DNA of 64,000 bases from a virus. The number at the start of each line of letters is the position of its first letter. The first letter of the stretch is position 1. Below the pieces are notes generated by a model, which saw nothing but the letters and a program-made list of their open reading frames with translations, was not told the DNA's origin and ran no database searches. The stretch spans positions 64,001-128,000 of the IMG/VR virus record IMGVR_UViG_3300037391_000010, one strand, 5' to 3'. The position numbers were made by a program, and so were the translations under genes. Positions 30,677-64,000 of the stretch are shown here, one piece after another.

Positions 30677-30685
30677 GGAGACACG

Positions 30686-46745: not shown

Positions 46746-48242
46746 GTGAAAATCGTCATCGCCGACAAGCTACCACAGGAACACTCTACCGAATTCAGGG
46801 GGCTCCCTGTTATAATTGAATGGCCGAAGGGAAGCACCCGTGTGGGTAAGAACCCTGACGGTACGACGTTCAAAACAGAGATGAAAGTCGATTATGGCTA
46901 CATCCCCGACACGACGGCGGCTGGGGACAAGGAAAAGCTCGACATCTACGTCGGGACCAATGAAGATGCGGAATATGCCTACATTGTTGAGCAATTGGAC
47001 GACAAGGGCGAATTCGACGAGTACAAAGTGATGCTGGGATTCGACACGCTGGAAGCTGCGGAAGAGGCGTACATTGGGCAGGCGGGTGAGGACCTGCTGG
47101 GCGACATCTCCGAGGTTGATTTCGAGTACCTGTTCGACACGGTGAAAGAGAAACAGAAGGAAGCCGCTGCTAAGAAAGAAGCCAAGTTCGCCGTTGGTGA
47201 GAAATACACAGTAATTGAAGCCTTTTTGAAGAACTACAAGCACGAGGTGGACTTCTACGATGAAGTCGCGCACCTCGTACAGGACAAGTTGGATCAGGCT
47301 CTTCAGGACGCGGGAATCAAGGCGGTGGTTAGCTCCCGTGCGAAAACCCCAGATCGGCTGAGGAAGAAGCTGTACAAGCGGAACCAAAAAAGAAACTACA
47401 AGACGTTCCGCGACATCGACGACGACATCATCGATTTAGCTGGCTGCCGCGTGGCTCTGTACATGCCCGCCGACCGCGATGCGGTTGGAAAGCTCATTGA
47501 AAAGTTATTCGTTCCCGTGCGACCCCCAAAGAGCTTCCCCGAAGCCAGCAAGCCCGAAGAAGGCGATACGCTGGGTTACACGGCGACTCACTATCTTGTG
47601 CGCCTGCGCCCCGAAACGCTTCGTAAGAAGGAGCTTCGGTACGCCGACACTCAGATCGAGATTCAGGTAGCATCCGTCCTGATGCACGCTTGGGCTGAAG
47701 TGACCCATGACTTGCTTTACAAGCCTGAAAAGGGTGAACTGACACCCGAAGAAAAAGCAGCCCTGAGCAATCTGAATAGGTTGGTGCAGGAGGGAGAACG
47801 GGAACTTGAAAAGCTTCAGTTCGCCATCGAAGGCCGCACGGATACAAGCCTTCGGTTTGAAATCGCAGCAGCTTTGGCGACGAGTCTCAAAGCCCGGTCG
47901 ATGGGAAAGACTGCCTCCCTGACCGTAGGCGACATTGAGAAGGCCGTTAGAGCTATTGTTGGAAGCAAGACATCACTGTGGTCGATTTACTTGAAAGCCA
48001 CGGAGACGCTCAGGAAAGCTCGTTGGGAAAGGCCCGACGAGGAGAAATACCGCAAGGCATGGGAATCCGCTGGATATGCGAAACCCGAGGAATCGCCCGC
48101 GAGTGAAACACATTACATTCGCGAGGCCATGGAGAAGCTCGCCCCGGGTAAGCCAGTTAGTACGTTGTGGGTTCTGCCGAATCGTAGTGAGATCATAGCT
48201 CTTGCTCAACAGTTGAAAGCCGAGGCAACAAAGGAAAAATAA
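46746..48242 (+). CDS. Fusion of inorganic-pyrophosphatase-like domain + RelA/SpoT-type nucleotidyltransferase (alarmone synthetase-like) + unknown C-terminal module
   Basis: IEWPKGSTR.G...M..DYGYI...D.EKLDIYVG...FDEYKVMLGF (PPase-like). RAKT...DLAGCRV...GYTATHY...EIQVASVLMHAWAE..HDL.YK (RelA/SpoT). Linkers KEAAAKKEAKFA and KTAS. Confidence 0.85.
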   Translation: MKIVIADKLPQEHSTEFRGLPVIIEWPKGSTRVGKNPDGTTFKTEMKVDYGYIPDTTAAGDKEKLDIYVGTNEDAEYAYIVEQLDDKGEFDEYKVMLGFDTLEAAEEAYIGQAGEDLLGDISEVDFEYLFDTVKEKQKEAAAKKEAKFAVGEKYTVIEAFLKNYKHEVDFYDEVAHLVQDKLDQALQDAGIKAVVSSRAKTPDRLRKKLYKRNQKRNYKTFRDIDDDIIDLAGCRVALYMPADRDAVGKLIEKLFVPVRPPKSFPEASKPEEGDTLGYTATHYLVRLRPETLRKKELRYADTQIEIQVASVLMHAWAEVTHDLLYKPEKGELTPEEKAALSNLNRLVQEGERELEKLQFAIEGRTDTSLRFEIAAALATSLKARSMGKTASLTVGDIEKAVRAIVGSKTSLWSIYLKATETLRKARWERPDEEKYRKAWESAGYAKPEESPASETHYIREAMEKLAPGKPVSTLWVLPNRSEIIALAQQLKAEATKEK

Positions 48243-48248: not shown

Positions 48249-48791
48249 ATGGCAGTCGCACCCTTCACCCGCATTGTAGTCGATAAGAAGGAGGAGGCGA
48301 AGTTCCGCCGCCGAGCCCTGAATCATTACCCACTGGAATACATGGAAGCCCTGTGGGGCAAAGTACGTGGTGATATCCTCTACATTCATGCCTTTGTGAA
48401 GGTCGATCATAAGCCCGGAAAACGCACCCTTCGGTACGAGGATTACGAGATTGACGAGCATGAAGAGGATGCAGCCGAAATCGGGCTGACCTACCTTGGC
48501 ACCATCCACACTCACCCAAACGCCGAAGATGCTCAATTTAGCGAGGTTGACTGTGAACAATCGCAGGACTCTCAGGACGTAATGATGGGCATCTGTGCCA
48601 TCCAAACTACCTATCTTGATGAGGAAACCAAGACTCAAAAGCCCCTGAACCGCAAGGTCGTCCGCGTCGAATACTGGCCGACCGTAACCCCACTCATCGC
48701 CATTCGTCGCGACACACCACCCTCAAGGTCGGTCAAACGAGCCCTCAAAAGGGGCTATAAACTGGCGAAAAAGAAGAAGTCCCGTCGATAA
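48249..48791 (+). CDS. JAB/MPN+ metalloprotease
   Basis: E(YMEALWG)...LGTIHTHP....FSEVD matches the E-x(n)-HxH-x7-S-x2-D JAMM motif. Confidence 0.8.
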   Translation: MAVAPFTRIVVDKKEEAKFRRRALNHYPLEYMEALWGKVRGDILYIHAFVKVDHKPGKRTLRYEDYEIDEHEEDAAEIGLTYLGTIHTHPNAEDAQFSEVDCEQSQDSQDVMMGICAIQTTYLDEETKTQKPLNRKVVRVEYWPTVTPLIAIRRDTPPSRSVKRALKRGYKLAKKKKSRR

Positions 48792-48821
48792 ACTTCCGCT
48801 TTCTATGGTATGGGCGCTAGA

Positions 48822-51800
48822 ATGAATCCATTGCTTCAAATGAAGACCGCCGCGTTCTCCTCGGTACGGGAAATCAATATCTCGGAAGATCAGGGCTCCG
48901 CAGAAGGGTACACAGCGGACACCAGTGCGGAACAACTCCAGAATTGGCTCGACCGCTTCGGCTACACGAACGAGGAATTCGTTGCCGACCTGCGGAAGAA
49001 ATACGATAGCTTCGCCGTATTGAATAACATCAATGTGTACGAAGATTCCCGTGGCAAGGGCTACGGCGATTACCTGCTTCAGGAATTCCTGCGAGAAGCT
49101 GGGGATCATGGTGCGGGTATCTGCCTGCTGGTCGCCGACACTGCCGAGGAACAGGCCAAGGGTTTCAGCTTGGTGGAGTGGTACGAACGTAACGACTTCG
49201 AGCAGATTGCCTCGGTCTACGGCGGGGAACTGATGATATTGGGCATCATGAATCCGAAGATTGTGGCAAAGAAAGCAGCCGCCGACATCGGTCAGATGAA
49301 GAACATTGTTGCCGAGATGATGAGCGTACTCACCGCTGGGCTACCACAGCCCGAAGTCAAGATCATAAACCAGACCAATAGAACGTTGGGGCAATGCCGT
49401 TGGCTTTGGGGCAAGAAAGCCGATCAGACTTGGGGCGATGACAATACCACGTTGGAAATTCAGAAGAAAGTTCTGGGGCACGAGGAGACCCTCCGTCGCG
49501 TCATCGCCCACGAACTGTGTCACCATGAAGTTGCTTTGCTCGTTGCTAAACCAAAGCTTCTGGAGATCGGCTACGAAACCTACAAACGGTATCAGAACAT
49601 TTTCGGGCCTGATGGACACGGCAAGGAATGGAAGGAAGTCGCCAAGCGTTTCGATGCAAAATACGGTGCGGACTTTGTGACAGAGAAATCCGATAAGGAC
49701 ACCGTAGTGGACGAACAAGGCAAAGAAATCTTCATCCTGCTCAATAACTATGTCTACGGTCGGCACAAGCAGCGTTTGGGCTGGCAGTGGGCAGTGGGGC
49801 TTAGCCGTCAGGCTATGGCGTACCTCGATGGGATTGATTGGACTTCAGGCGAATTCAAACTGGTCAAGACGACTGATGCTGTATTCACCAAGGGGCGAGG
49901 CCGAATCAAGCAGTACACAGGATGGAATTTGCCGCGCACCCCTGAACAGGAACAGAAGCTTCAAGACCTCTGGGCGAATGCTCCGATGGCGAAGTTCGGT
50001 GCCGACGAAGACAAGACTGCCAAGTCAGGCCCGCACAAGAATGCGACATCCCAGATCAACCTGCCGCCCGAAGCCGCCGCTGGGATGATGGAAGCCGCGA
50101 AGCAAATTCCCGATGAGGAACTCGGCAAGGATGGTCGCGAGGATGACCCACACATCACAGTTAAGTACGGAGTAAAGCCCGATCCCGATTTGTTGAGTCA
50201 AGTTGTAGGTGAACAGCAACCATTTACGGTAACGCTGGGCAAGACGCACGTATTTTCCGTGAGCGAAAGTTCCGACGCTCAAGCTCCTATCGTGGTTCAA
50301 TGCCATGCTCCCGAACTTGAGGCTCTCCACAACAAGGTCGCGGAAGCGATTGGCACTCGCAAGGATGATTTCCCCTACGTGCCACATGTAACTCTCGCTT
50401 ATGTCAAGCCCGACGTTGCCGCCAAATATGAAGGAATGGACTGGGCTGAGGGCATCTCCTTCCAAGTAGACGCCATCACCCTGAGTACGAAGGGCGGCGG
50501 TCAGGTTCGAGTGCCATTTGGCAAGCCTCGTAAGTCCGCATCCCACAAAACCCCACCGATGAGCGACACGCAGTACCAGAACCCTGAGATGGGTGAGGAG
50601 ACGAACGCTTACGCAGACATTCCAGAGCGTGTGAAGGGTGTCGAAGACCTGCCTTCGCTCGAATCGCTTTCGCCTGACCTATTCAAGACGGGAGCGGGCA
50701 GCGTTCACGATCTCGATTTACAGGACGTGGTTGCTTGGGGCGGCAGCCTCAGTGAGGCACAGGGCGATTGGAACAAGATCAGGGCAGAGGCCGCTGAACG
50801 TGTGAAGGCTGAAGGCAAGGATTGGGAGAAAATGCCCGAGGCTGAACAGGAAGTGTGGCTCGACAAGATTGGCTGGGAGTGGCTCGGGGCGACATGGGAA
50901 GTCACCATGAACCGCCTCCAATCTCTGAAGTTCCCTCTCGTAGTCTACCGTGGGCTGGGCTCCGTCAGCCTCAAGGAGATCAACAAGGGGCAATACAAAG
51001 AGAAGGGCACGGGCATCTATTGGTCTTATGATGAGAACAACGCTTACGTGCATGAGGAACTCGCCGCTGGGCATTCGCACATCATAATGTTGCGAGGCGT
51101 CGTGAGTTCACCAAAGCAGATCGATTGGATTCGTACCGCTTATGTCAACCTCGTGGCATCGGATGAGAAGGAAATCAACATCTGGCCGGGTGAAGAGGTT
51201 CAGATCACGGGCTACAAGTACAAGGGTGAGAAGGCGTGGAAGAATCCACCGAAGAATCTCCGTCAAGTACGTGCCGCCGCCACGAACTTCAAGCCCATGC
51301 TGTTCGACAACTGGTGTGACGCGAACCCGATGTACCAGCCTGACGATTTCAACGAGGCCGAATACCGTTACGATGAGAATGTCGCCCACTTCAGCACTGT
51401 GGATTTCCCCATCACGATCTACCGTGCGGTTCAAGTTGAGCAAGGCACGCAGCCGAACTTGGAGAAGGCTGGCATCTATTGGACGTGGGTTGAGAACAGT
51501 GCTGATGCGTACTTTGGTTCGGGGTCGATATGGGATCAAGGCGGGCCGCATCCGAAGAACCCTCAAACCTTAATTCTAAAAGCCAAGGTGTTGCGTTCGA
51601 CCGATGTGGATTGGGACGCGACTCTTCTCGCCAACATGCTCAACGAAGACGAGAACGAGATCACTGTTGAGGCAGGTGCCCAGCTTCAATTGATTGGTAT
51701 CGATTACGGGCAAGGCTATAAGAAGCCCGCTCAGAAAAGGGTCATGGCATACGGCGACGAATCCAAGAACCTGCCTTTACGTGGACAGAAAGGTGTGGGC

Positions 51801-54800
51801 GGACAGGACTTTCCTCTGATGTTCGACCCGCCGTTGTTCTCGGATGAGAAGGAAGCCGCAGGCAGACCGAAGTTCTACCACGGCACGGCAGCGGAGAACC
51901 TCGACGACATCCTAAAGAACGGGCTCAAAGCCAGCAAGGATATGAGCAGCAACGAGTGGGGTCGGTCTGTGTACCTCGCCTGCGATGCATACACGGCAAA
52001 GAACTACGAGGGGCATCAAGGCAAGGGTCGCGGCAACTGGGTCATATTGGAGATCGACGGCAATAAGCTCCATGAAGACCTGCTTCGTCCCGACGATTAC
52101 GATTTCCGCGACATCTTCGAGAGCTTGCCCGAGGAAGAGAAGGCAAAATGCGAGGGCAACTGGGCGTGGTGCGATTGGCGAATAAGCCTTGAGCACAGTT
52201 GTCAAGTGGCGTACATGGGCGATGTCCCGCCTGACGCCATTAAGGTCGTTCCAACGCCGAAGTTCAGCGCAAAGATCAATCCCAAGTTAAAAGCATGGTT
52301 CAACGGTTCGAAGGTTGTGGACGACAAAGGACAGCCACGCATTGTGTACCACGGCAGCAAATCCACGTGGATCAGTTCCTTCGATCTGGGTATGGAAGGC
52401 ACAGGCACGGCAGGCAGCACAAAGTGGGGCGGCATTTGGTTCACATCGAACCAAGGAAACGCCAGTTGGTTCGCCGATCCGCCCGAGGAAAAGGTTGAAG
52501 CACGCACTGATGACGTGACGGTCTACGGTAATGACCCGTATTATGCCGCCATCACCGACATTAACGGCGAAGGCATTTTCGAAGTTGGCCCGCATCCTAC
52601 AGAAGAGGAAGCGGAGCGAGACGGCATTGCACAGGCGAAAATGTACAACGAGCATCTGGGTGAGGACACCAACGTCCAAGCCGTCTACCTGAAGATCGTC
52701 AACCCGTATGTCACCGATCAGATTCCGCGTGACAAGGAATTCAAAGCCGCTCGGGATGGCGGACACGACGGGATCATCGCCAAAGAGGTAACGGATGGTG
52801 TGGAGGTTAGCGATGTGTTTGTCGTGTTCAGTCCGAATCAGGTCAAGTCCGCTACCCGCAATGTCGGGAACTATGACCCGAACAACCAAAGCATTATAGC
52901 GGGTGGGTCAACCCAGTTGTTGCCCGACGAAGTGGAGCTAGTTGCAGACATCGCTCAAAGCGGCGGCGGGAAGGCATTCCCGAAGCTGGAGAAAGAGCCA
53001 TTGTTCCCCGAGGATAAAGAGAAAACTGCCAGTGCCACACCAGAAATCAAGGAAGAAGCAAACAGTCTCCGATTAGAAGTTGGGGGGCAGAAGATTGGCT
53101 ATATCGGTTATCGCGTGGATCAAGTCGGCAAGAAGAAGTTTGCCGAAATCTCCGGTCTCGAAGTGGACAAGGCATGGCGTAGACAGGGGTGGGGAACAAA
53201 GCTGTACGAAGCTCTTGCCGCAAAAGCGAAACGCGAAGGCATCTCGTTCCTGACCTCCAACCTCAGCGGTATGACCTCTTCTGACGCAGAGGGTGTGTGG
53301 TCTCACCTTATTGGTAAAGGGTACAACATTGAGGAGGTTGCATCCGAGGATTCGGAGACGGGCAAGCCGTATTTCAAGTGGAAAGTCGCCAAGCAGTACG
53401 GCCCCGTCTATCACGGCACCTATCACGAATGGTCTGACAAAATCCAGAATGACAAATACAAGATCGGAAAGTTTTTCAGTTCAGACCCGCTTGTGGCACA
53501 GGCATACGGCAGCTTCGTGCATGAATGTTATCTGACGATGAACAAACCATTCATCGTGGACGCGAAGGGAGAAAGTTACTCCTCAATCCCCACGCCCGAA
53601 GCGTTGAAGCGTTGGGTTGCCTCTGGAATGGATACGGTCGATACTGACAACATTGCTGATTACGCCTCCAAACATGGGTACGATGGCGTCATCATTAAAA
53701 ACGTTGTTGAGCTTCACCACCAAGTCGAGGCGGACGACTACATCGTGTTTAAGCCCAATCAGATTAAGGTGAAGGGCGTCATTGAGCCTGAGATCAGTCC
53801 TTACACTGCCAACAAATACCATAAGCAAGAGTTGCAGCGTCGTTTTGAAAAGAAATACCCCCAGACGGCAAGCTCGCACACGGCGGCGGGACTCCCGTCA
53901 TTCAATGCGTGGGTGAAGAAGAACGGCGGCATCGCCAAGATTCTCGACATGTACGACGTTGACACAGCGGAGACTTACGGTTCCGGGTTGGAAGAGCCCG
54001 AGAATCAAGCTGACGTTAAACGTTACGAGAAAGAACTACACAAGCGTGCCTTGGCGGACTTTCAAGAGCGATACGAGCATTTTATCGCGGAGTACCAAAG
54101 CTGGCAATTCCCGATGGATGTGTTCCGTTGCATCTCTTTGCCAAAGCCTGACAGCAACGCAGGACAGCAGCACTTGTTCCCCGATACTCCGCAGGCACAG
54201 TTCCAGCAAGGATTGCAGGCGATAAAGTACAACGGCGTCGGCATCTTCTGGTCGTGGGATGAAAACTCCGCAGAATGCCATTGGGGTTCTGGCGGGCCGA
54301 ACGTGACGCTGCACGGCATAATCAACAAAGACAACGTTGATTGGGAAGGCACGCTTTACGCCAACATGTTTCCCGCATTGGGCGACGACGAAAAAGAAGT
54401 CCGTCTGATAGAGGGTACACAATTTGAGCTTGAGGGAATCCAATACGACGAGAAGTCGGGATGGTCGCAGCCCCCAGTGAAGACGGTTACGGCAGCGAAG
54501 GCCAAGAAGCGTGTGTTCTACCATGCGACGAGTGCCGCGAACATCAATGGCATTGCACAGCACGGGTTGAAGCCTTCGGAGAAGACGAACTGGGGTGGTA
54601 TGCTGGGAGATAGCTCCCTTGGCAAGACGTTTTTTGCAAAAACACCCGCCTCGGCGATGTACTACGCCATGATTATCTTCCGCGACAAGCTGGAGGATAA
54701 CGGTCAAGCACATGTCCCGATCTGCCTTCGTGTGACCATACCTGAGAAGGTTCAGTTGGACACGGAGCGGGCCCAGAATGTGCAGAGGGGAGTCCATTTA

Positions 54801-57800
54801 CCAGAAAGTGAAGCCTATGCTCCCGATGAGGAATCGTGGGTCACGGAGGGGATTCCGCCTGCGAACATTCAGATGTTCTGGCAGGGTAAGTGGCAGCCAG
54901 TCAAATCGGGCGATTGGGATTCCATGTTCTATTATGAAGAGGGAGAGGGCGTTGGGTACGTGGACTGGGAAGGCTCCCCCGTTGGAGATTCCGTTCCTGA
55001 AGCTATGGCTGACGTTGAGAGCTTCACGATGCCGAAGAAAGCAGGCGTGATGGGTCAGGTATACCTCCTGCACTTCGATATCGATCCGAAGGAAGAGATT
55101 CCTAGCACCCGCGAGGACGCTAAGAAGCCGTTCCACGCTCGTCACTATATGGGCTGGGCCGAGAACGCACAGGAGCGCATCGACCAGCACTACAAGGCAA
55201 CCTCAGGCGTCAAGCTGATCGAAGCCATCCATGCCAAGGGTATTTCGTTCACCGTCGCCCGAATTTGGGATAACGTGGATCGGGACTTTGAGCGTAGGAT
55301 GAAGAATCAGGGCGGATTGAACCGTCACTGTCCTATTTGCAAGAAGCTGGGGCTCATCCCCGCGTCTCGCTATCGCGGCAAGGCATTGGAGAAGCAAGTG
55401 GCACCAGCAACACCTGAAGCAGGGCTAGATTTCGTGGAGATAGAGAAGAAGGCCGCAGCGGGTGATCTCGCCAATCTGCGGAACTACCTCACTCTGAGCC
55501 GCCGCGAGATGGGCGAGGAGTTAGCTCGGAATTTCAGCAGCTATTGGTCAGAGTTCGTAGAGAATGAGCATCCCGAGCTTGCCAATCTTATCGACGAAGA
55601 TGGCTACACTGACAATTTTGACACTGTTCCCGAGGATGTATTGAGCGACTTCCTCGACCAGTACGGCAGTCGGGCACTACAGGATGACCCCGCTATGGCT
55701 CCCACGTTCCTGACTGTGGACTATCGTCGCGATGTCAAGAACGCTTGGCTCGTGCATTTCACCGACTTCCCCGATGAGATTGCCAAGAGTGGTTTCAAGT
55801 ACGGCATGGATCGGGTGGAAACGCTCGCTCTAACGACCTACTTCAAGGAGGACGCGAAGAAGTTCGGTGGGTATAACTTTGCCCTCGACGCCCATCACCG
55901 CAACCTTGAATCTCTCGGGAGCAACTACGGCAAGCATTGCGTTCTGTTCCAAGCGAACGGTATTGAGACGTGGCATACAGGCGATGACTTTGAACAGATC
56001 ATTTTCTGGGGTAAGGACGCGAGGAACATCATTCCGATCTACGACAGCGGCGGGTATGGTACGTGGTCAGTCGGTGAGGACAAAGACGGTAACCCGCTGT
56101 TTGAGAGTGAAGACCTGTCGCAGGTTGTGGAGTGGGCAATTACGAACTCCGCGAAGTTGTTACCCAAAGCCAAGAAGCCGAAAGCTCAGCGTGCAGTCGC
56201 CAGTGAGATGACAACGTTATACCACCGTACTCGCCCGGGCCGTGAGGGACAGATTGACACGCAAGGATTGAGCCATATCGAAGGCGGCGGTGAACTTTGG
56301 TTTACTGATGATCCGTCTGCTTATTATGGGGACTCGCCAAACGCAATGTATAGCGTTGAGGTTCCTAAAGAAGAAGCCGAGGCCGCACACGTGGGTGGAC
56401 ACGATTACCGTTTCATGGGCCGTTCATTCGCCCCCGAACAAATCAAGAAGGTCGGTGCGGAGCCATGGGAAATGCGACAAGATGAATACGCGGGTCGCTG
56501 GAACGAGCAAGAGACAGAGGAGCAGAGCGGTGTGCGTCACCAGAAGAACCAAGATTGGGAACAGAATTCCCTAGCCGCCCTGTCGCTCGGTAAGATCACA
56601 CCAGAACAGGCGAAGGAACGCGGTGTGTACGAAGCGAAATCATTCATACCCCTGCCTCAGACCCCGTTGTATCACGTCACAACCGCCAAGAGTCAAGTCG
56701 AAGCGAATGGTCTCAAGACTCGTCGTGAACTCGGTCAAAATTACGGCAAGGGGTTGGGCGGCGGCACCAGCATGAGCATCAGCTTCACTGATGATATGAG
56801 CATCGCACAGGGCATTTACGATAACCTGCTGATCGCTCGTAAGGTTGCCGCAGGCGAGATGACCTTGGACGATCTGATTAGCACTGCCACTAAGGGCATG
56901 GGTGCGAACCGTCCGTGGATCGACGACATTCTCAAGTCGCTGGGCGGCTCCAACCCGAAGGACAAGATCAACGTGGAACTGGATGCCATACAACGTGGTG
57001 TGGCGTTCGAACACGGGCTGGGTCGTCCACCCGATGACGAAGCGATTCTGCCGCAGTACCGCAAGCCCGGGCCGTGGCGTCCTACTCCTTGGAGCCAACA
57101 TTGGAAGGGCGGCGATGGAGAAGAGAAGTACACGTACTGGGAACGCGACCTCACTCCTGAGGAAAAGCAGGAACGTGTGTTTGAGTTCTTCAAGAAGTGG
57201 AGCTTCTGGCGTGAGCAAGCGGGCGGGGGACTTGATCCGCTGTACTTCATGAGTGATCCAAAAGCTTTGGGTCAGACACCCGAGAGTGAGATCACCATCC
57301 TGACATTCAAGGCTGTGCCCGGAGCAATGGGCACTCGTGAATCGGCATTGGGTGAATGGCGTGTGTACACGGGTGCGGCTGTGCAGCTTACGGGTAACGC
57401 GGCGGCGGCAAAGATGGGGATGTTTAATCCCAACCGAGCTAACGTTCAGTACAATTCCGAGAAGGGTACAGGCGAGTGGGAAGGCTGGAACATCGATTTC
57501 AGCGCCGATCCAGTCAAGGAGCACATGCTGCCCGCATCGTTCGTTCGGAAGCTGAAAGGAATTGAGCAGAAGTTCATCAACGTCGCCGATGTAGTGGAGA
57601 CACAGAGCGAGCACTGGACAAAATCCGAACGTGTGGATGAGATTCACACACAGATGGAAACCGAGAAATGGTTCGAAGCCATTCTCGTAGACGAGTACGA
57701 AGATCAGCAAGGGAAATATTACTTGGAAGAGGGGCATCACCGCACCCGTGTAGCAAAGAAGATGGGCAAAACGACTATTCCAGCCGTGATTATGAAGCTG

Positions 57801-60800
57801 GAACCTCGTAAACCTCACTGGTCGTTATCGTCAGGTATCGTCAGAAAATCGTCAGATATCGCCAAGTTTGCGTTCCTCATCGAAGTTCCGAAGGAGTCAC
57901 GCGGCCATTTCTGGGATGAGCCGCCCGCCCACAATCTGGAGTTCTGGGCCTTCCGAAGCCGTCCTCCTGTCCTGATGAACGAGAAGGTCTACTTCACGTT
58001 CGACAAGATGCCCGTGGCGGAAACTACCTGCCTGAAGATTGAGAAACCCGGCGAGTCGCTGTGTGAACTGAGCGGCAAGTACGAGGATCACTGGAAGCTC
58101 TACTGGGAACCGAAGCAGTTCGTCAAATACGCTGGAGCCACAGTTACGTTGTACCATGGCACTTGCCCTGAAAATGCAACCGCACTCGTTGAAAAGGGAT
58201 GGCAGCCGAATCAAGTGAGCAGTGGGGCGAATCGTGGTCAGTCGAAGTATTTGTACCTGACAAATATGACGGACAACGCTCGCTGGTTTGCTCAAGAACA
58301 TGGGTGCGACACGCTAATCGAAGTTCGCAATATCCCTCTGAGCTACATCGCACTCGACCCTGAGGACGCTACTCAGGACACGGTGGAGGCTGAGCTTGAC
58401 TATAACGGCACGGGATTGCCCGGCACGGTTGTCCTCACACAGCCGTTGGGGGCGGAACATTTCCACGTGCTCCATGGTAAAGTCGGTAGCTTGAATGAGA
58501 AACGAAATGAAAAGTGGATTTACCACCCCGATTACGGTGCGTTCTCACAGAAGGGAAGCATAGGTCCTCATGCGACGTTGATAGCGAGAACCATGGGTGA
58601 GGGCATGGCCTCTGGGTGGAAGTACACTGAGGTACTACGAGGCTACGCAGTAATTGACGTGGATCAAAAAACCGTAACCTTGGCGACTCCCACGAAAGAG
58701 TTCATACCGAACGACGTAGTGGATTTGTTCAAGAAGAAATACCCCCAGTACGACCTATCGATTCCTGCGGAATCGAAAGCGGTTGGTGTGACCGCCGCCA
58801 TGCCGAAGAAGTGGTATCACGGCACGTCCCTGAAGAACGCTGAGAAAATCCTGAAGGACGGCTACCTCCAGCCAGATCAAGAGACGACCTACGACATTGA
58901 CATCCCGCGTGACGGGGCGGTATACATCGCCGACTTCGATATTGCGGAGCAGTACGCTATCGAACGCAGCGGTGTGGTGTTGGAAGTTGCCGCCCCGGAT
59001 ATCAGCAAGCTCCTGCCCGATGAAGATGATGTTTACGAACTGCTCAACGACCGTGGTGGTGAACTAAACGCCAAGGGTTCTGCCCAAGCCAAGCGTGTGA
59101 AAGCTCTGTGGCTCAAGCAATGGAATGATGAGAACGCTTCCTACAATGAGCCCGAGAAGTTCCCGATCTATAAGAACTTCGAGGAAGCATGGAAGGCATG
59201 GGGCGAAATCGAGTTCGAGGGCTCAGCCGAACTTGCCGAGCAGATGAAGTATTTGACCGACTACATTGTCAAGAATGATCCCAAGCTCGCTCGTGCGATC
59301 ATCGAACTGGCGGGTAAGGCTGCTCACATAGGGCCGCTCAAGGTTGTCCGTCAGGTCAAGACGGGTGCTCCGAAGTCCATCTGGTATCACGGCTCCAGCC
59401 TGAAGAACCTGCAAAGCATCATGAGTCAGGGATTGGTTCCCGAAGGTAAGGAAAAGGTCTGGGGGGACGATCCTGACGCTGGGCTATCTGCACCGAGTCG
59501 TCAATCTTACGGCGGAATCTACGTCACACAGAACCTCATGACGGCGACGGGAGCCCCCAATACCGAGGACAAGAAGGCTCGTGGCGGCGTACTGATTGTC
59601 GCCATGGAGCTTCAGCCGAACACGATGTACCTCGACGAGGACAACGTTACGGGAGTCTTAGGCGCTCCAATCAAGCACCTGAGTGACAACACCTTCCACG
59701 TTCTCTGTTATTATTTGGCGGCTACACAAGAAGGCGCTGCTGAGACTTGGCAACAAGAGATAGAAGGAATGCGTGCTGACTATATTCGCAAGTGCCTTAC
59801 GCAATGGGAGAGCAAATTTGCGGAGCGTAAGATACCGTTCCACCCCGAACTGAAAAAGGAACTTGAGAAGATTCTACCCAGTGTGTGGCTCGCGGGCGTA
59901 ACACGAGCGGCAGGCCATGTCAAGGACAACTACTCCTACATTCGGGCTTGGGATCAGGTCTTCTACGGCACTCCGAAGGAGAAGCAGCGTCCCGACGCGA
60001 ACACCGTGCTGCCCGACGCATCTGAGGGAGAGGCGGCGTTCCGCGAAGCGGCAGAGAAGGTCACCCGCACGCTGCGGCTCCTCGCTCGTCCCGCTGAAGA
60101 GTCTTCGAAGAATCAGATTTACAACATGAACACCTCTCGCGTCAACGAGCCGATTGGTTTCAGCGGGTCGAATCACATCCTCGCCCTCATAGAAGTTCGA
60201 GATCGCCAGCAGCCTGCTCAGATGATCCTGCACTGGGGCACCATTCCGCCAGACTTCTTCACCCAGTGGAACATAAAGTTTGGCAGCAAGTACGAAGTGG
60301 TGGACGCCCGCAAGGGTCAGCCCAAGGCTAGGGGTGTGGCAGCCTCAGCTAAAACCGCCGATGATTACGCCGCCGATTACGATCAGGAAGTCTTCTACCA
60401 CGCGACCACGTGGAAGATCGCTGACTTGATCGACAAAGAAGGATTGAAGTCAAGCGACAATCAACTGACTCAGGGTAAGAAGTACATCTGGTGCTCTATC
60501 GATATGGCTGCGGCGAAAACTTACGGTCGGTACTTTAGCCAAGACGAGGATAACGAACAGTTTGCTGTGGTGGAATTCATCTGGAATTACGATAAGAGCG
60601 AGCCTGACCCGGAGCACTTTGAAGAGGGCGACACGTACCGCCGCATCGAGTCCGACATTCCTCGGTCGGCAATCACCAAAATTTACTATTTCGCACACGA
60701 TCAGGTTGTCAAGACGGCTGCGGTAGAGGATAAAATCAAGGTAACCACGGCTCCAGACGGACGAATTACGGCCAAACACGTCGATGGAAGTGCTTCAGGC

Positions 60801-63800
60801 ACCGTGGAAGACCGTGAAGGACTGGCTAAGTGGTTTGATTGGAACACTTTACCACGTGGCGGGGCTGGAATTTACGACAAAGCCTTCGTTTTGGGCACTG
60901 TAACGGTCAAAGTCTCGTGCCGCCGTACAGGGCTCGGCAGGGCGCTTATAGGGGCTGTGCTCGACGCAGCGAAGGCTCAGGGTGCCCAAGTGTGCTTCCT
61001 GCTCGCCCATTCGCTCACAGGGCTCTCCGCGAAGGAATTGAGTGCTTTCTACAGCAGCCTTGGGTTCCAACCATACGTCATCGACCCGCCGCCGCGATGG
61101 TTCGATTCCTCGACCGCTGGCATTTTCATGAAGAAGCTGGCAGGCGTGGCAAAGCTCGCCGCCATGAACCGCATCAGCCAGCAGGACGCCGTGGATCGCA
61201 AGATGTTCGGCCCTGTCTACCATGGCACCACCGAGGAGAAACAGGAGAACATCGGGAACGAGGGCTTCAAGGTCTACATCGGTGACGCGGGATCGGGCGA
61301 CGTTGCTCACGGTTACGAAGGTAACCAACCCTATCATGACGGCATCCCTGCCCCCGTTCACCATCTGGGGTACGGCGTGTACTTCACGACCGCCAAGGCT
61401 ATCGCCAAGCAGTTCGCGGGCGGCACCACGCGAGGTATGAAGACTTACTACCTCGACGTGCCACGGCTGGAGACCATCAACTTCGGAGTACCGAAGACCA
61501 TGATGAAGTGGTGGGTGAGTCAGGGCTACGACGGGGCGCTCGCAAAGAAAGATCGCGTGGCAGCGACCAAGCAGATGACCGAGCACCTGAAGGCTCAGTT
61601 TGATGCCGTGTGGTTCAAGGGCAAGGGCATGTACAAGTTGCTCGATGGCGATCAGATTTGTGTGTTCGATTCGAGTCGCATCTATGAAGTCGATGCAGCT
61701 ATGTCGAAGCCGGGTGACATCGGCTCCAAGGTCATTCGTAAGGCCGATGGGATGAAGGGCGTCATCAAGAACATCCGTCCGATCCCGCCTGAAGTGGCAC
61801 AGCAGTATCACGGTGGGGCGGACAAGTTCTACGAGATCAAGTGGACGAAGGGCGGCACCGACCACAACGTCTACGCCCGCGATATCGATTTCGTTGGGGC
61901 GAAGGCTCAGGGCGCTACGGCGTCAATGAAGACCGCCGAAGGATTCAACGATGAGGGTTTCTGGGCAGGCGAAGGCAATGCCGCGTCTGGCGTTCTGCCA
62001 ATCTGCACCACCACGGGCCGCATCTGTCTCGCATGGCGATCACCCGATGTCCATATCGGCAATTGCTGGGGCACCATCGGTGGGGCGGTCAAGCCGGAGA
62101 TGAGCTTGTCAGAAAGTGCCAAGGCGGAACTGAAAGAAGAGACGGGGTTCGGCGGCGGTGTTACCATGATCCCCGCTTACGTGTTCAGCAGCGGGAGTTT
62201 CTCTTACCACAACTTCCTCGGAACCGTGGGCACGGAGTTCCGCTTCGCTCCGCAGAGCGAACATCACTGGGAGACCACTGGGCTCGAATGGTTCACATGG
62301 GATGAGATTCAGCAGATGGTAAAGGAAAACTCCAGCGATTTCCACCCGGGCCTCATCAGCTTGTTCAAGAGCGACGGCAAGAAGATCGAACAGCTTCTCG
62401 GCAAGCCAAAGACAGCAGCGGGCGACGATGGGGATATGCCGAACATGCTTCAAGTCTTCCCCGAACGTCCCGATGTGATGGAGACTTTCCGCCACATGCG
62501 CCCATTCGAACGGGATCGATTGATCGAGGAAGCTCAAATCGAAGAGATACATCCCGCCGATCTGAAGACAAATCAGGCGACTCTTTCACGGAAAGACCTC
62601 CAGTATTTCTTGGACAACCCCGAGGAGATCACCAAGCCGCACAGCAACGTCGGACTGAGCGACACGGAGCAGTTGTACCCGCTCGTGTGCCGCACCAGTG
62701 AAGGCGATTGGCTGTACGATGGTAATCATCGTGCGAATGCCGCCATGAAGCTCGGCATCATGCTCAAGTGCAAGGTTGTAGACCTACGGGATTACGAGGA
62801 GCCACAAGGAAAGGTTTCCAGAAAGCTCGCCGCACGAGGCGAGGTTGGCCCTGTCTATCACGGCACCGACAAGAAGTTCGACAAGTTCGAGCAGAAACCC
62901 GGCACCCGATACATTCTCTTCTCCGAGATTAAGGTACAGGCTGGTGGGTTCTTCTTCACCGATGACCCTGAGGAGGCGAAGGAGTTCGGCTCGAACGTCA
63001 TGACCTGCTACTTGAAGATGAAGAAGCCACTGATTCGGCAAGAAGACCAGTATAACTTGAGCAAAAAGCAAATCGCCGACCTGACTTACATCTGCGAGCC
63101 ATGCATGAGTGACGGCTATTCCGACTTGCAAGGCAATTCCGTCAAGACGATTGAACTTGGAGCCTTTGCCATCGATGTAGACCCAGAAGGCAACTGGCTC
63201 AACGAGATTGTGAAGCAGAACGGGCTCGATTGGAACATCTTGGATAATCAAGAAGCCGTTAATCGCATGAAAGAGCGCGGCTACGACAGCACCATGGTGG
63301 ATGAGTACAACGGCAAGTATAGCTATTGCGTGTTCTCGACCGACCAGATCAGGGTCAGTGGCGGCAAGACAGCCTCGGGTTGGAAGGACGAAGGCTTGCT
63401 CAACGAAAGCGACATGAAGAAGTGGAAACAATACTGGGACGGTCAGGGGCACAGTATCCAAGTTGACAAAGCCCACGGCGGGCTGTATCACTGCTGGATC
63501 AAGTTCGCAGCCGCCCCAGCCCGAGCATTGAAGCTCTACCATGTCACGACGGTGCCTATCGCCGAGGACATCAAGGCTCACGGCTTCAAGCCGGTCGATC
63601 AGGGTGTGTGGAAGAACTATTACGCCCCGCAGGGACGCGACGGCATCTACTTTTACGACGATCTGAAATACTCCGAGGCTTACGCCGCCTACACCGAGGG
63701 TCAACTTTACACGCGCAACATTCAGCCCGATAGACCTTGGAGTGAAAATAAGAAACACCTACCTCAGATGGCGATTATCGAAGTGCAGGTGCCCGAGGGT

Positions 63801-64000
63801 GTCGCGATTACCACCGACCAGAAAGAGGATGGGTTCTTTGTACCCACCGCTGATCTGGACAAGGTTAAGATCGTCAGCATGAACAAGTACGACTACGTTC
63901 CAGCCAACGGTAGAAAGCCGGGTGAGAAGTTCGGGGCAGCCTTCCCAACCTTCGAGCAGGTCATGGATGAATCTACCTTAAGCATGACTAATGAGTTCAT
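48822..64000 (+). CDS. Giant polyvalent effector protein/polyprotein (>5,050 aa, 3'-truncated): ~17 ADP-ribosyltransferase-fold domains, 3 GNAT, SprT-like protease, 2H phosphoesterase, GIY-YIG, 2 ParB/Srx, NUDIX and unknown modules
   Basis: Hand translation from ATG 48822 (MNPLLQMKTAAFSS...) finds no in-frame stop to the window end. Recognisable catalytic motifs occur throughout (see findings). Confidence 0.92.
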   Translation, partial: MNPLLQMKTAAFSSVREINISEDQGSAEGYTADTSAEQLQNWLDRFGYTNEEFVADLRKKYDSFAVLNNINVYEDSRGKGYGDYLLQEFLREAGDHGAGICLLVADTAEEQAKGFSLVEWYERNDFEQIASVYGGELMILGIMNPKIVAKKAAADIGQMKNIVAEMMSVLTAGLPQPEVKIINQTNRTLGQCRWLWGKKADQTWGDDNTTLEIQKKVLGHEETLRRVIAHELCHHEVALLVAKPKLLEIGYETYKRYQNIFGPDGHGKEWKEVAKRFDAKYGADFVTEKSDKDTVVDEQGKEIFILLNNYVYGRHKQRLGWQWAVGLSRQAMAYLDGIDWTSGEFKLVKTTDAVFTKGRGRIKQYTGWNLPRTPEQEQKLQDLWANAPMAKFGADEDKTAKSGPHKNATSQINLPPEAAAGMMEAAKQIPDEELGKDGREDDPHITVKYGVKPDPDLLSQVVGEQQPFTVTLGKTHVFSVSESSDAQAPIVVQCHAPELEALHNKVAEAIGTRKDDFPYVPHVTLAYVKPDVAAKYEGMDWAEGISFQVDAITLSTKGGGQVRVPFGKPRKSASHKTPPMSDTQYQNPEMGEETNAYADIPERVKGVEDLPSLESLSPDLFKTGAGSVHDLDLQDVVAWGGSLSEAQGDWNKIRAEAAERVKAEGKDWEKMPEAEQEVWLDKIGWEWLGATWEVTMNRLQSLKFPLVVYRGLGSVSLKEINKGQYKEKGTGIYWSYDENNAYVHEELAAGHSHIIMLRGVVSSPKQIDWIRTAYVNLVASDEKEINIWPGEEVQITGYKYKGEKAWKNPPKNLRQVRAAATNFKPMLFDNWCDANPMYQPDDFNEAEYRYDENVAHFSTVDFPITIYRAVQVEQGTQPNLEKAGIYWTWVENSADAYFGSGSIWDQGGPHPKNPQTLILKAKVLRSTDVDWDATLLANMLNEDENEITVEAGAQLQLIGIDYGQGYKKPAQKRVMAYGDESKNLPLRGQKGVGGQDFPLMFDPPLFSDEKEAAGRPKFYHGTAAENLDDILKNGLKASKDMSSNEWGRSVYLACDAYTAKNYEGHQGKGRGNWVILEIDGNKLHEDLLRPDDYDFRDIFESLPEEEKAKCEGNWAWCDWRISLEHSCQVAYMGDVPPDAIKVVPTPKFSAKINPKLKAWFNGSKVVDDKGQPRIVYHGSKSTWISSFDLGMEGTGTAGSTKWGGIWFTSNQGNASWFADPPEEKVEARTDDVTVYGNDPYYAAITDINGEGIFEVGPHPTEEEAERDGIAQAKMYNEHLGEDTNVQAVYLKIVNPYVTDQIPRDKEFKAARDGGHDGIIAKEVTDGVEVSDVFVVFSPNQVKSATRNVGNYDPNNQSIIAGGSTQLLPDEVELVADIAQSGGGKAFPKLEKEPLFPEDKEKTASATPEIKEEANSLRLEVGGQKIGYIGYRVDQVGKKKFAEISGLEVDKAWRRQGWGTKLYEALAAKAKREGISFLTSNLSGMTSSDAEGVWSHLIGKGYNIEEVASEDSETGKPYFKWKVAKQYGPVYHGTYHEWSDKIQNDKYKIGKFFSSDPLVAQAYGSFVHECYLTMNKPFIVDAKGESYSSIPTPEALKRWVASGMDTVDTDNIADYASKHGYDGVIIKNVVELHHQVEADDYIVFKPNQIKVKGVIEPEISPYTANKYHKQELQRRFEKKYPQTASSHTAAGLPSFNAWVKKNGGIAKILDMYDVDTAETYGSGLEEPENQADVKRYEKELHKRALADFQERYEHFIAEYQSWQFPMDVFRCISLPKPDSNAGQQHLFPDTPQAQFQQGLQAIKYNGVGIFWSWDENSAECHWGSGGPNVTLHGIINKDNVDWEGTLYANMFPALGDDEKEVRLIEGTQFELEGIQYDEKSGWSQPPVKTVTAAKAKKRVFYHATSAANINGIAQHGLKPSEKTNWGGMLGDSSLGKTFFAKTPASAMYYAMIIFRDKLEDNGQAHVPICLRVTIPEKVQLDTERAQNVQRGVHLPESEAYAPDEESWVTEGIPPANIQMFWQGKWQPVKSGDWDSMFYYEEGEGVGYVDWEGSPVGDSVPEAMADVESFTMPKKAGVMGQVYLLHFDIDPKEEIPSTREDAKKPFHARHYMGWAENAQERIDQHYKATSGVKLIEAIHAKGISFTVARIWDNVDRDFERRMKNQGGLNRHCPICKKLGLIPASRYRGKALEKQVAPATPEAGLDFVEIEKKAAAGDLANLRNYLTLSRREMGEELARNFSSYWSEFVENEHPELANLIDEDGYTDNFDTVPEDVLSDFLDQYGSRALQDDPAMAPTFLTVDYRRDVKNAWLVHFTDFPDEIAKSGFKYGMDRVETLALTTYFKEDAKKFGGYNFALDAHHRNLESLGSNYGKHCVLFQANGIETWHTGDDFEQIIFWGKDARNIIPIYDSGGYGTWSVGEDKDGNPLFESEDLSQVVEWAITNSAKLLPKAKKPKAQRAVASEMTTLYHRTRPGREGQIDTQGLSHIEGGGELWFTDDPSAYYGDSPNAMYSVEVPKEEAEAAHVGGHDYRFMGRSFAPEQIKKVGAEPWEMRQDEYAGRWNEQETEEQSGVRHQKNQDWEQNSLAALSLGKITPEQAKERGVYEAKSFIPLPQTPLYHVTTAKSQVEANGLKTRRELGQNYGKGLGGGTSMSISFTDDMSIAQGIYDNLLIARKVAAGEMTLDDLISTATKGMGANRPWIDDILKSLGGSNPKDKINVELDAIQRGVAFEHGLGRPPDDEAILPQYRKPGPWRPTPWSQHWKGGDGEEKYTYWERDLTPEEKQERVFEFFKKWSFWREQAGGGLDPLYFMSDPKALGQTPESEITILTFKAVPGAMGTRESALGEWRVYTGAAVQLTGNAAAAKMGMFNPNRANVQYNSEKGTGEWEGWNIDFSADPVKEHMLPASFVRKLKGIEQKFINVADVVETQSEHWTKSERVDEIHTQMETEKWFEAILVDEYEDQQGKYYLEEGHHRTRVAKKMGKTTIPAVIMKLEPRKPHWSLSSGIVRKSSDIAKFAFLIEVPKESRGHFWDEPPAHNLEFWAFRSRPPVLMNEKVYFTFDKMPVAETTCLKIEKPGESLCELSGKYEDHWKLYWEPKQFVKYAGATVTLYHGTCPENATALVEKGWQPNQVSSGANRGQSKYLYLTNMTDNARWFAQEHGCDTLIEVRNIPLSYIALDPEDATQDTVEAELDYNGTGLPGTVVLTQPLGAEHFHVLHGKVGSLNEKRNEKWIYHPDYGAFSQKGSIGPHATLIARTMGEGMASGWKYTEVLRGYAVIDVDQKTVTLATPTKEFIPNDVVDLFKKKYPQYDLSIPAESKAVGVTAAMPKKWYHGTSLKNAEKILKDGYLQPDQETTYDIDIPRDGAVYIADFDIAEQYAIERSGVVLEVAAPDISKLLPDEDDVYELLNDRGGELNAKGSAQAKRVKALWLKQWNDENASYNEPEKFPIYKNFEEAWKAWGEIEFEGSAELAEQMKYLTDYIVKNDPKLARAIIELAGKAAHIGPLKVVRQVKTGAPKSIWYHGSSLKNLQSIMSQGLVPEGKEKVWGDDPDAGLSAPSRQSYGGIYVTQNLMTATGAPNTEDKKARGGVLIVAMELQPNTMYLDEDNVTGVLGAPIKHLSDNTFHVLCYYLAATQEGAAETWQQEIEGMRADYIRKCLTQWESKFAERKIPFHPELKKELEKILPSVWLAGVTRAAGHVKDNYSYIRAWDQVFYGTPKEKQRPDANTVLPDASEGEAAFREAAEKVTRTLRLLARPAEESSKNQIYNMNTSRVNEPIGFSGSNHILALIEVRDRQQPAQMILHWGTIPPDFFTQWNIKFGSKYEVVDARKGQPKARGVAASAKTADDYAADYDQEVFYHATTWKIADLIDKEGLKSSDNQLTQGKKYIWCSIDMAAAKTYGRYFSQDEDNEQFAVVEFIWNYDKSEPDPEHFEEGDTYRRIESDIPRSAITKIYYFAHDQVVKTAAVEDKIKVTTAPDGRITAKHVDGSASGTVEDREGLAKWFDWNTLPRGGAGIYDKAFVLGTVTVKVSCRRTGLGRALIGAVLDAAKAQGAQVCFLLAHSLTGLSAKELSAFYSSLGFQPYVIDPPPRWFDSSTAGIFMKKLAGVAKLAAMNRISQQDAVDRKMFGPVYHGTTEEKQENIGNEGFKVYIGDAGSGDVAHGYEGNQPYHDGIPAPVHHLGYGVYFTTAKAIAKQFAGGTTRGMKTYYLDVPRLETINFGVPKTMMKWWVSQGYDGALAKKDRVAATKQMTEHLKAQFDAVWFKGKGMYKLLDGDQICVFDSSRIYEVDAAMSKPGDIGSKVIRKADGMKGVIKNIRPIPPEVAQQYHGGADKFYEIKWTKGGTDHNVYARDIDFVGAKAQGATASMKTAEGFNDEGFWAGEGNAASGVLPICTTTGRICLAWRSPDVHIGNCWGTIGGAVKPEMSLSESAKAELKEETGFGGGVTMIPAYVFSSGSFSYHNFLGTVGTEFRFAPQSEHHWETTGLEWFTWDEIQQMVKENSSDFHPGLISLFKSDGKKIEQLLGKPKTAAGDDGDMPNMLQVFPERPDVMETFRHMRPFERDRLIEEAQIEEIHPADLKTNQATLSRKDLQYFLDNPEEITKPHSNVGLSDTEQLYPLVCRTSEGDWLYDGNHRANAAMKLGIMLKCKVVDLRDYEEPQGKVSRKLAARGEVGPVYHGTDKKFDKFEQKPGTRYILFSEIKVQAGGFFFTDDPEEAKEFGSNVMTCYLKMKKPLIRQEDQYNLSKKQIADLTYICEPCMSDGYSDLQGNSVKTIELGAFAIDVDPEGNWLNEIVKQNGLDWNILDNQEAVNRMKERGYDSTMVDEYNGKYSYCVFSTDQIRVSGGKTASGWKDEGLLNESDMKKWKQYWDGQGHSIQVDKAHGGLYHCWIKFAAAPARALKLYHVTTVPIAEDIKAHGFKPVDQGVWKNYYAPQGRDGIYFYDDLKYSEAYAAYTEGQLYTRNIQPDRPWSENKKHLPQMAIIEVQVPEGVAITTDQKEDGFFVPTADLDKVKIVSMNKYDYVPANGRKPGEKFGAAFPTFEQVMDESTLSMTNEF

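Follow-up and report, generated by a model that had tools for sequence, protein, structure and literature searches.

What kind of protein is encoded by a single reading frame that runs off the end of a 64,000-nucleotide stretch of viral DNA without meeting a stop codon? The stretch considered here (hereafter the window) comprises positions 64001-128000 of the IMG/VR virus record IMGVR_UViG_3300037391_000010, a contig of 155,417 bp whose completeness is estimated by CheckV at 48%. An earlier note on this DNA had claimed that one plus-strand frame stays open from window position 48822 to beyond the window end and encodes a chain of effector enzymes. The frame, which we call the giant open reading frame (giant ORF), is listed at 48810..63998 on the plus strand, where it encodes 5,063 amino acids (aa) within the window and remains open at its 3ʹ end. 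Extension into the parent contig, as the note had proposed, places the stop codon 1,264 nt past the window end (window-equivalent 65264, contig 129264), and the full frame (contig 112810 to 129264, 5,484 aa) contains zero N and zero internal stops. The second ATG, at window position 48822, yields a protein of 5,480 aa beginning with MNPLLQ. This is the start that the note had chosen, and it is shared by the homologues and by the database copy of the protein; the alternative ATG is at 48810.

A 16.4-kb stop-free frame in DNA of 54% G+C cannot be attributed to chance. Colinear blocks at 55-93% identity link it to eight other giant proteins (3,152-5,842 aa) that come from JGI, NCBI, ENA and Logan assemblies, and these blocks jointly span nearly the entire ORF. 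In addition, an allele encoding 3,886 aa, at 84% nucleotide identity, is present in three more IMG/VR samples (3300031525, 3300031236 and 3300030618). Because parts of the ORF recur colinearly in giant proteins of other assemblies, these comparisons identify it as real rather than as an artefact of assembly. A hairpin followed by a T-run, resembling a terminator, lies at the stop codon (contig 129263-129279), in a region where the number of hairpins is not above that of shuffled controls. For a metagenome-derived contig, one would naturally be concerned about misassembly, chimerism or the decay of a non-functional pseudogene, but such an origin is exceedingly improbable for a frame that is open over 16.4 kb, has colinear homologues in at least eight other assemblies, conserves its catalytic motifs and is followed directly by a terminator-like hairpin.

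By its sequence relationships, the source is an uncultivated jumbo myophage from soil that belongs to the Tunturi_5 clade. The closest isolate is the Tunturiibacter (Acidobacteriota) phage Tunturi_5, a 308.7-kb myovirus whose capsid protein and head protease are 71% and 62% identical, respectively, to those encoded on the contig. The uncultured phage LR745208, Bacillus phage G and the cluster-C myoviruses of mycobacteria are related more remotely. A scan of IMG/VR with the capsid protein recovered 160 relatives on contigs of up to 463 kb.

We lean slightly towards a reading in which the giant ORF encodes a cassette-built polyvalent effector polyprotein that would be packaged in the phage head and cut by the head protease, with cutting, packaging and injection all deduced from sequence features. 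Module junctions were set from indel breakpoints between homologues together with a recurring linker motif. The resulting array consists of a 15-aa leader (11 aa when counted from MNPLLQ) and 35 modules, numbered M1 to M35, that are 40-331 aa long (median 144 aa); about 10 of these modules are without an assigned family.

The linkers between modules carry the motif K-x-[A/G]-[A/S/G], most commonly as KTAA, or in some cases VTAA in its place. The strict motif occurs 30 times in the giant ORF versus 14.7 ± 3.6 copies expected from composition (z 4.3), and it is enriched in the eight giant relatives as well (z 2.5-5.6). Among five classical polyvalent proteins of the helicase or LPD type that the same search had recovered, four had z values of -1.3 to 1.0 and one, P0011, a value of 3.2. 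When all gapped words in the family are ranked by over-representation, K.AA is third, behind catalytic words of the ADP-ribosyltransferases (ARTs). Moreover, 16 of the 44 clusters of indel breakpoints are no more than 10 aa away from a strict motif, versus 4.3 ± 2.0 for random placement and a maximum of 12 in 2,000 trials; the clusters that miss the strict motif mostly coincide with degenerate versions of it (RAAA, KFSA and VTAA, for example). No positions around the linkers are conserved beyond the motif itself, and in a structural model of M15 and M16 the intervening KKAA linker is disordered (predicted local distance difference test, pLDDT, below 50). The linkers use all four alanine codons, and both lysine codons occur at background ratios. 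This synonymous variation indicates that constraint acts on the peptide and not on the DNA. A DNA-level recombination signal at the linkers is ruled out by the same free choice of codons.

The motif is not confined to the giant ORF. Thirteen head or cargo proteins encoded on the contig hold 106 copies versus about 50 expected, whereas the other 154 proteins hold 40 copies versus 47.7 expected. The 13 motif-rich proteins are the major head protein, the head protease, four scaffold-like proteins, a 77-aa protein, a 498-aa protein with InPase and RelA/SpoT domains, four long ORFs (643-2,002 aa) in which Pfam recognizes no domain with confidence, and the giant ORF. The head genes were recognized with PHROG profiles for the maturation protease (E 2e-14) and the major head protein (E 3.5e-42), and neither the Pfam head protease models (S78 and S77) nor the HK97 capsid models have a match on the contig. 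A tail sheath is encoded there as well. In the major head protein, KTAG occupies residues 19-22 and KLAA residues 26-29, and in the head protease, whose core is encoded at contig 27942-28898 and corresponds to Tunturi_5 gp331, KSAS precedes this conserved core and KIAS follows it. The four scaffold-like proteins are acidic or proline-rich and are encoded both beside the protease and elsewhere; the head module (contig 23931-31093 and 34216-35175), which lies outside the window, encodes three proteins of the scaffold-like type that are acidic or rich in Pro/Ala and have 4-10 motifs each.

All four sites in capsid and protease are retained by Tunturi_5 with within-class changes (KSAA and KLAA in the capsid protein, KTAA and KVAS in the protease). 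They are also retained by LR745208, even though its capsid protein shares only 50% identity and starts with 17 unrelated residues. Both phages encode scaffold-like neighbours with 6-14 motif copies. Capsid N-termini are almost invariant over 80 loci, in a sample biased by the search patterns. Since the junction motif, on which the earlier note is silent, is common to the giant ORF and the head proteins, a polyprotein that is cleaved becomes a likelier mechanism than a single giant protein. In the jumbo myophages phiKZ, 201phi2-1 and SPN3US, the prohead protease processes many head-packaged proteins (PMC5694885, PMC10052503). The placement of the motif in head proteins matches the pattern of head-protease substrates in T4-type and phiKZ-type phages. 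The head protease encoded here presumably belongs to the assemblin-like class of prohead proteases. Herpesvirus assemblin cuts between Ala and Ser; as a speculation, a cut before the final residue of K-x-A-[A/S/G] would fit an assemblin and leave stabilising N-termini.

A second feature shared with head-associated proteins is the leader. The sequence MNPLLQ(x)K[TFI]A[ASK] is kept in five family members despite their differing first modules, which are GNAT domains here and in P0006 and ARTs in P0003, P0004 and the 3,886-aa allele. One of the scaffold-like proteins, whose gene is next to that of the head protease, has MKPSNPLLQKQA as its N-terminus, resembling the leader of the giant ORF. T4 internal proteins have a short N-terminal leader that is removed by the head protease at a simple motif also found in the capsid and scaffold proteins. 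On this analogy, the leader is a candidate capsid-targeting or propeptide signal.

If this reading is correct, the precursor would be made late in infection and drawn into the prohead via its leader, the head maturation protease would then cleave each junction motif, and about 35 small enzymes would be ejected with the DNA. These enzymes might ADP-ribosylate and acetylate host targets while the 2H and NUDIX modules degrade defence nucleotides, an action that can be likened to that of T4 Alt and the internal proteins. A role in host takeover or counter-defence, as the earlier note had suggested, may be inferred from domain content. Modules could be gained, lost or duplicated without disturbing their neighbours because each would be bounded by a proposed cleavage site. 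The most complete version of this proposal envisages a precursor of about 600 kDa with a prohead-addressing leader of about 10 residues, diced at about 35 K-x-A-(A/S) sites into reshufflable cassettes that include 15-20 distinct ARTs, with at least four further precursors of the same kind. We consider that version a serious prospect, although we stop just short of favouring it; if true, a large share of the capsid cargo of this phage would be made as polyproteins.

Module content and order among relatives, which the earlier note had singled out for comparison, can be described as follows: the giant relatives share a colinear core and differ by insertions, deletions and duplications of whole modules, with P0008 rearranged. 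The 3,886-aa allele has lost 5.4 kb in frame; the deletion begins 30 residues inside M8, where a stub of the ART remains, and extends as far as the linker that precedes M19. Homologue P0003 (5,245 aa) is without the HExxH half of the SprT-like module (giant aa 158-287) and retains the rest, and so the embedded zincin appears to be dispensable. With this catalytic half missing, the SprT-like module is unlikely to be an obligatory cis-acting protease. Searches for the locus with single modules returned near-identical copies only. The counterparts in Tunturi_5, gp273 (1,489 aa) and gp321 (1,362 aa), have the same linkers and are annotated only as 'MutT/NUDIX hydrolase' (PP885688); the paper describing that phage contains no proteomics and no discussion of the modularity of the two proteins (PMC11924767).

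Three complete related genomes (463, 456 and 332 kb) have cassette ORFs of about 1,000-3,700 aa with these modules, three of them in the 456-kb genome. One 3,722-aa reading in that genome spans a single TAG between two adjacent ORFs.

The array in the window, and its continuation in the parent contig, reads as follows (window coordinates, plus strand throughout).

48822-48854, +: leader MNPLLQM-KTAA, the same in homologues whose first module differs
48855-49280, +: M1, GNAT (RGKGYG); Pfam Acetyltransf_7 E 1.9e-4, below cut-off; paralogue of M26 and M11
49281-49670, +: M2, SprT-like zincin (HELCH); Pfam SprT-like 29.9 bits, cut-off 25.6
49671-50003, +: M3, conserved in relatives; no Pfam or PHROG match
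50004-50543, +: M4, 2H phosphoesterase with two H-x-T motifs; Pfam 2_5_RNA_ligase2 E 6e-15
50544-50696, +: M5, mini-module of 51 aa
50697-51860, +: M6 and M7, cholera-toxin-like ART-fold modules (R...W-S...E-x-E) by AlphaFold2 (AF2) with Foldseek and VIA; family absent from Pfam
51861-52271, +: M8, PARP-like ART of the H-Y-E type; Pfam PARP 27.4 bits, just above the cut-off of 26.7
52272-52913, +: M9, ART-PolyVal; Pfam PF18760 E 2e-19
52914-53033, +: M10, mini-module of 40 aa
53034-53390, +: M11, GNAT (RRQGWG); Pfam Acetyltransf_1 E 8e-11
53391-53888, +: M12, ART-PolyVal; Pfam PF18760 E 2e-14
53889-54497, +: M13, cholera-toxin-like ART-fold module; phmmer to M6 and M7 at E 7e-15
54498-55046, +: M14, PARP-like ART; Pfam PARP E 7e-4, profile E 3e-24
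55047-55457, +: M15, possibly GIY-YIG-like by AF2 and VIA; no Pfam match
55458-56204, +: M16, helical region and probable ART-fold core, a weak assignment by VIA
56205-57407, +: M17 (85 aa) and M18 (316 aa); 'LYH[RV]T' motif only
57408-57869, +: M19, ParB/Srx-like (EGHHR); Pfam ParB_N E 1.6e-4, below cut-off
57870-58136, +: M20; no Pfam, PHROG or PDB-sequence match
58137-58490, +: M21, PARP-like ART; profile E 4e-23, phmmer to M8 at 6e-4
58491-58799, +: M22; no Pfam, PHROG or PDB-sequence match
58800-60722, +: M23, M24 and M25, PARP-like ARTs; profile E 1e-20 to 2e-26; M24 also a weak Pfam PARP match
60723-61163, +: M26, GNAT (RRTGLG); Pfam Acetyltransf_7 27.5 bits, passing the cut-off
61164-61937, +: M27, ART-PolyVal-like with a small C-terminal domain; Pfam E 1.4e-3, profile E 5e-25
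61938-62420, +: M28, NUDIX hydrolase; Pfam NUDIX 33.8 bits
62421-62834, +: M29, possibly ParB-like (DGNHR); PHROG ParB-like E 0.04-0.1
62835-63377, +: M30, ART-PolyVal; Pfam PF18760 E 1e-15
63378-63512, +: M31, mini-module of 45 aa
63513-63938, +: M32, PARP-like ART; phmmer to M14 at 3e-4, Pfam ART-PolyVal E 0.04
63939 to window-equivalent 64370, mostly beyond the window, +: M33, cholera-toxin-like ART by phmmer family link
Beyond the window, +: M34, R...S...E-like, with weaker support
Beyond the window and before the stop at window-equivalent 65264, +: M35, 'LYHGM' motif

Pairwise phmmer comparisons and iterated local profiles sort many of these modules into four groups.

ART-PolyVal: M9, M12, M27, M30
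PARP-like: M8, M14, M21, M23, M24, M25, M32
R-S-E-like: M6, M7, M13, M33
GNAT: M1, M11, M26

The supported ARTs thus fall into three clades, and M24 carries an extension of about 190 aa. In total, 15 modules are ARTs with sequence or structure support, and as many as 20 are reached when motif-only candidates are counted; their catalytic activity is predicted. The boundaries that the earlier note had read from motifs agree within a few codons with those set from junctions, and every motif it quoted (RGKGYG, HELCH...HGKEW, RRQGWG, EGHHR, RRTGLG and DGNHR) is present in the translation. Its three GNAT domains, SprT-like protease, 2H phosphoesterase, NUDIX hydrolase and first ParB domain are backed by Pfam, profile or structure evidence, as are 14 of its ART modules in the window (M6-9, M12-14, M21, M23-25, M27, M30 and M32). 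Its remaining assignments fared less well. The GIY-YIG nuclease (M15) has weak fold-level similarity (Z 4.1-4.3) and no Pfam match, M16 is weakly ART-like at the level of fold (Z 5.0-5.7), and the second ParB domain (M29) corresponds to faint PHROG similarity (E 0.04-0.1). The note's description of a giant effector array of the polyvalent type holds over the full-length protein, in which Pfam and homologue searches found no helicase, methylase or MuF domains.

Several modules gave little or no signal. M4 is weakly Acb1-like (Pfam Acb1 E 7e-5, below cut-off). M17 and M18 have no Pfam match, and for M18 a value of 0.84 in the ESM Atlas is a sub-threshold lead. The database entry for the whole protein has a precomputed assignment to PF26898. 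A PHROG search with the ten unassigned modules gave weak ParB hints for M29 only, and single-sequence PDB searches with M18, M20-22, M34-35 and the head protease gave zero matches.

The R-S-E-like modules deserve separate consideration. M6, M7, M13, M33 and M34 have no match in Pfam, PHROG or PDB sequences, and a PDB profile search yielded chance hits only. M6 was modelled with AF2 from a 15-sequence alignment that included ten extra copies taken from related phage genomes of 237-463 kb. The resulting model (pLDDT 87.5; predicted template-modelling score, pTM, 0.80) has as its top Foldseek matches cholera toxin A1 (CT-A1), heat-labile enterotoxin, S1 of pertussis toxin, PltA and TreX, an Rhs ART toxin, with a best E value of only 4e-3. 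VIA-align superimposed 96-100 residues at a Z score of 6.8 and a root-mean-square deviation of 3.3 Å, and its top 50 matches are nearly all ART-superfamily enzymes. Across 221 domains, conservation is 98% for the R, 100% for the W of G-x-x-W-[ST], and 94% and 95% for the two glutamates of E-x-E; the STS of R-S-E toxins is replaced by [YF]-W-[ST]. The family signature is FPLxVYR ... GxxW[ST] ... VDWxxT ... ExE. These modules probably represent an uncatalogued ART family of the R-S-E type, for which the modelled fold provides moderate support.

A word-indexed search for stand-alone copies of M13 found none, whereas an exhaustive profile search did find many. The latter returned 2,644 cluster representatives (at 50% identity) with E ≤ 1e-3, of which 793 had E ≤ 1e-10, and its smallest members stand alone as proteins of about 150-250 aa, while at the other extreme 2-5 copies occur within proteins several thousand residues long. 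None of the 10 stand-alone members checked has a Pfam family. The R...W-S...E-x-E family is thus large (at least 2,644 clusters), has a probable ART fold and is without a Pfam model. In proteins of cluster-C mycobacteriophages, members are also found as fusions with ParB, and phage G has them in gp336, gp251 and gp38.

M15 and M16 were folded jointly from nine sequences (pLDDT 64.5, with 45-75 in the M15 part). Foldseek found nothing significant with this model, and an independent fold search was made with VIA over 48,161 chains. In this low-confidence model M15 has the strand and helix order b-b-a-a-b-a, and its structural matches are solely GIY-YIG nucleases (I-TevI, Z 4.3; PD-T4-3, Z 4.1). 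For the M16 core, nearly all matches are enzymes with the ART fold (TreX, Z 5.7; diphtheria toxin, 5.6; Scabin, 5.0). The assignments of M15 as GIY-YIG-like and M16 as ART-fold are hence weakly supported by modelling.

Two genes immediately precede the giant ORF, and three of the long motif-rich ORFs lie elsewhere on the contig.

Window 46746-48242, +: 498-aa cassette protein; Pfam InPase E 2e-31 and RelA_SpoT E 3e-11, followed by a C-terminal part; linkers KEAA and KTAS
Window 48249-48791, +: 180-aa JAB/JAMM metallopeptidase with intact H-T-H-x7-S-x-x-D; Pfam Prok-JAB 32.8 bits
10174-12105, +: 643-aa motif-rich ORF; 8 motifs, one sub-cut-off Pfam HTH_38 match
12657-18572, +: 1,971-aa motif-rich ORF; 13 motifs, no confident Pfam domain
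18547-21717, +: 1,056-aa motif-rich ORF; 9 motifs, no confident Pfam domain

The 643-, 1,971- and 1,056-aa ORFs probably encode further cargo precursors, to judge from their motif content; the long motif-rich ORFs have no modules in common with the giant ORF. The JAB protein, encoded directly upstream of the giant ORF, is 42% identical to Tunturi_5 gp271, which adjoins gp273. An InPase-headed protein is also encoded near gp273, upstream of it as is the JAB gene, with a second module that differs. Because both the JAB protein and an InPase head adjoin gp273 as well, the JAB protein is a serious alternative as the processing enzyme; it might otherwise be an unfused effector. The Tunturi_5 counterpart of the JAB protein is annotated 'minor tail protein'.

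Several observations weigh against cleavage of a packaged polyprotein by the head protease. The motif is low in information, such that chance would account for roughly half of its 30 strict copies, and some junctions carry degenerate forms only. The deletion in the 3,886-aa allele begins inside a module and not at a linker, and 78 kb of the contig separate the giant ORF from the head genes. The capsid segment of phage G gp27 that aligns with this region is without lysine, and for that reason the conserved GR-x-KLAAS may be partly structural rather than a cleavage site. Finally, two other possible processing enzymes are closer at hand, namely the product of the JAB gene directly upstream and the embedded SprT-like zincin. 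The simplest alternative is an unprocessed giant multidomain protein of about 600 kDa, arranged as beads on a string and acting as one molecule whether packaged or not, in which K-x-A-A is merely a favoured linker or helix cap. A motif so short and degenerate, and absent from the aligned capsid position of phage G, is compatible with this idea, and the polyvalent proteins N4 vRNAP, ArdC and TraC1 are transferred unprocessed (PMC5512222). However, a passive linker leaves unexplained why the motif flanks the core of the head protease, why it is kept in the capsid N-terminus of relatives whose flanks have otherwise diverged and why it is concentrated in only 13 head or cargo proteins. We therefore judge the unprocessed protein to be unlikely.

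The other alternative accepts a cleaved polyprotein but assigns the cutting, in the cytoplasm or after injection, to the upstream JAB/JAMM protein or the embedded SprT-like zincin. JAB enzymes cleave behind tails of small residues, and the candidate here retains its H-x-H-x7-S-x-x-D motif intact with a Prok-JAB score of 32.8 bits. The trio of JAB protein, InPase protein and cassette protein is kept in Tunturi_5, and it is through embedded peptidases that polyvalent proteins were proposed to be released (PMC5512222). These points are offset by the missing HExxH half of the SprT-like module in the 5,245-aa P0003, by the other four motif-rich ORFs, which have no adjacent JAB gene, and by the occurrence of the motif in capsid, protease and scaffold-like proteins encoded 78 kb away, for which a JAB enzyme offers no explanation. 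Processing by either metallopeptidase thus seems quite improbable, and cleavage by the head protease remains the reading that we prefer. If the junctions are indeed cut, the precursor would be among the largest phage proteins on record and the gene would hold the densest known concentration of ARTs, and tailed phages would be able to deliver dozens of effectors via a polyprotein, unlike in the embedded-peptidase model. The combination of K-x-A-[A/S] and MNPLLQK would then serve as a rule that predicts capsid cargo and mature ends across a clade of soil jumbo phages, and would split the giant gene into about 35 small, testable enzymes. Since Tunturi_5 can be grown, it offers a direct test system for the polyprotein hypothesis.

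Among known systems, the closest in composition are the polyvalent proteins, known from phages as well as conjugative elements and described by Iyer, Burroughs, Anand, de Souza and Aravind in 2017, which were predicted to be packaged in virions and delivered early, and for which an analogy with viral polyproteins was drawn (PMC5512222). As in those proteins, several unrelated effector domains (GNAT, zincin, 2H, ART, NUDIX and ParB by Pfam) are joined in one phage polypeptide. ART-PolyVal (PF18760) is present in the giant ORF, and InPase and RelA/SpoT are in the adjacent gene and not in the giant ORF itself. Multi-ART members are on record: a polyvalent protein of a P. aeruginosa prophage has 12 ART copies (PMC5512222), and a later survey reported at least 10 ARTs in phage G. 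However, polyvalent proteins have 2-15 domains, usually arranged around a helicase, methylase, MuF or LPD domain, whereas about 35 modules occur here without such scaffolds. Their release was proposed to involve an embedded MPTase, whereas here the SprT-like zincin scores above its Pfam cut-off and no MPTase was found. The giant ORF also differs from polyvalent proteins as described in combining at least three ART clades, and from most of the classical ones tested (four of five unenriched) in having a uniform junction motif that is common to head-maturation substrates. The counterparts gp273 and gp321 of Tunturi_5 share NUDIX, ART-PolyVal, GNAT, SprT and 2H modules and the same linkers, and gp273 has the same neighbours, but they are about four times shorter and belong to a cultivable phage.

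Systems of head-packaged proteins provide the closest parallels for the proposed processing. T4 Alt, which is an ART, travels inside the head and is injected (PMC5512222). Like Alt and IPI-III, the giant ORF product starts with a short, conserved leader whose end is formed by a motif also present in capsid, scaffold and protease, a likeness that concerns motif positions only. The T4 proteins are single-domain and cut once, whereas the giant ORF product would be cut about 35 times into different enzymes, and Alt has no sequence homology to it. The phage resembles phiKZ, 201phi2-1 and SPN3US in being a jumbo myophage, and in those phages one head protease cuts many ejected head proteins. There the substrates are encoded by separate genes and are mostly without recognizable enzyme domains, and the cleavage motif, S/A/G-X-E, differs from the K-x-A-A type. 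By lineage, the capsid protein and protease of the present phage go with phage G, mycobacteriophage cluster C and Tunturi_5 rather than with phiKZ.

Polyproteins made by eukaryotic RNA viruses are similar in that one product bears a recurring short protease site at each junction and gives rise to many enzymes, although here cleavage is only proposed. They differ in that the present case would involve a double-stranded DNA phage, a protease acting in trans, and products that are accessory effectors instead of a replication core. On sequence grounds, polyvalent proteins are the right class for the giant ORF, and its scale, its freedom from scaffold domains, its three ART clades and the junction motif that it shares with head proteins are what distinguishes it within that class.

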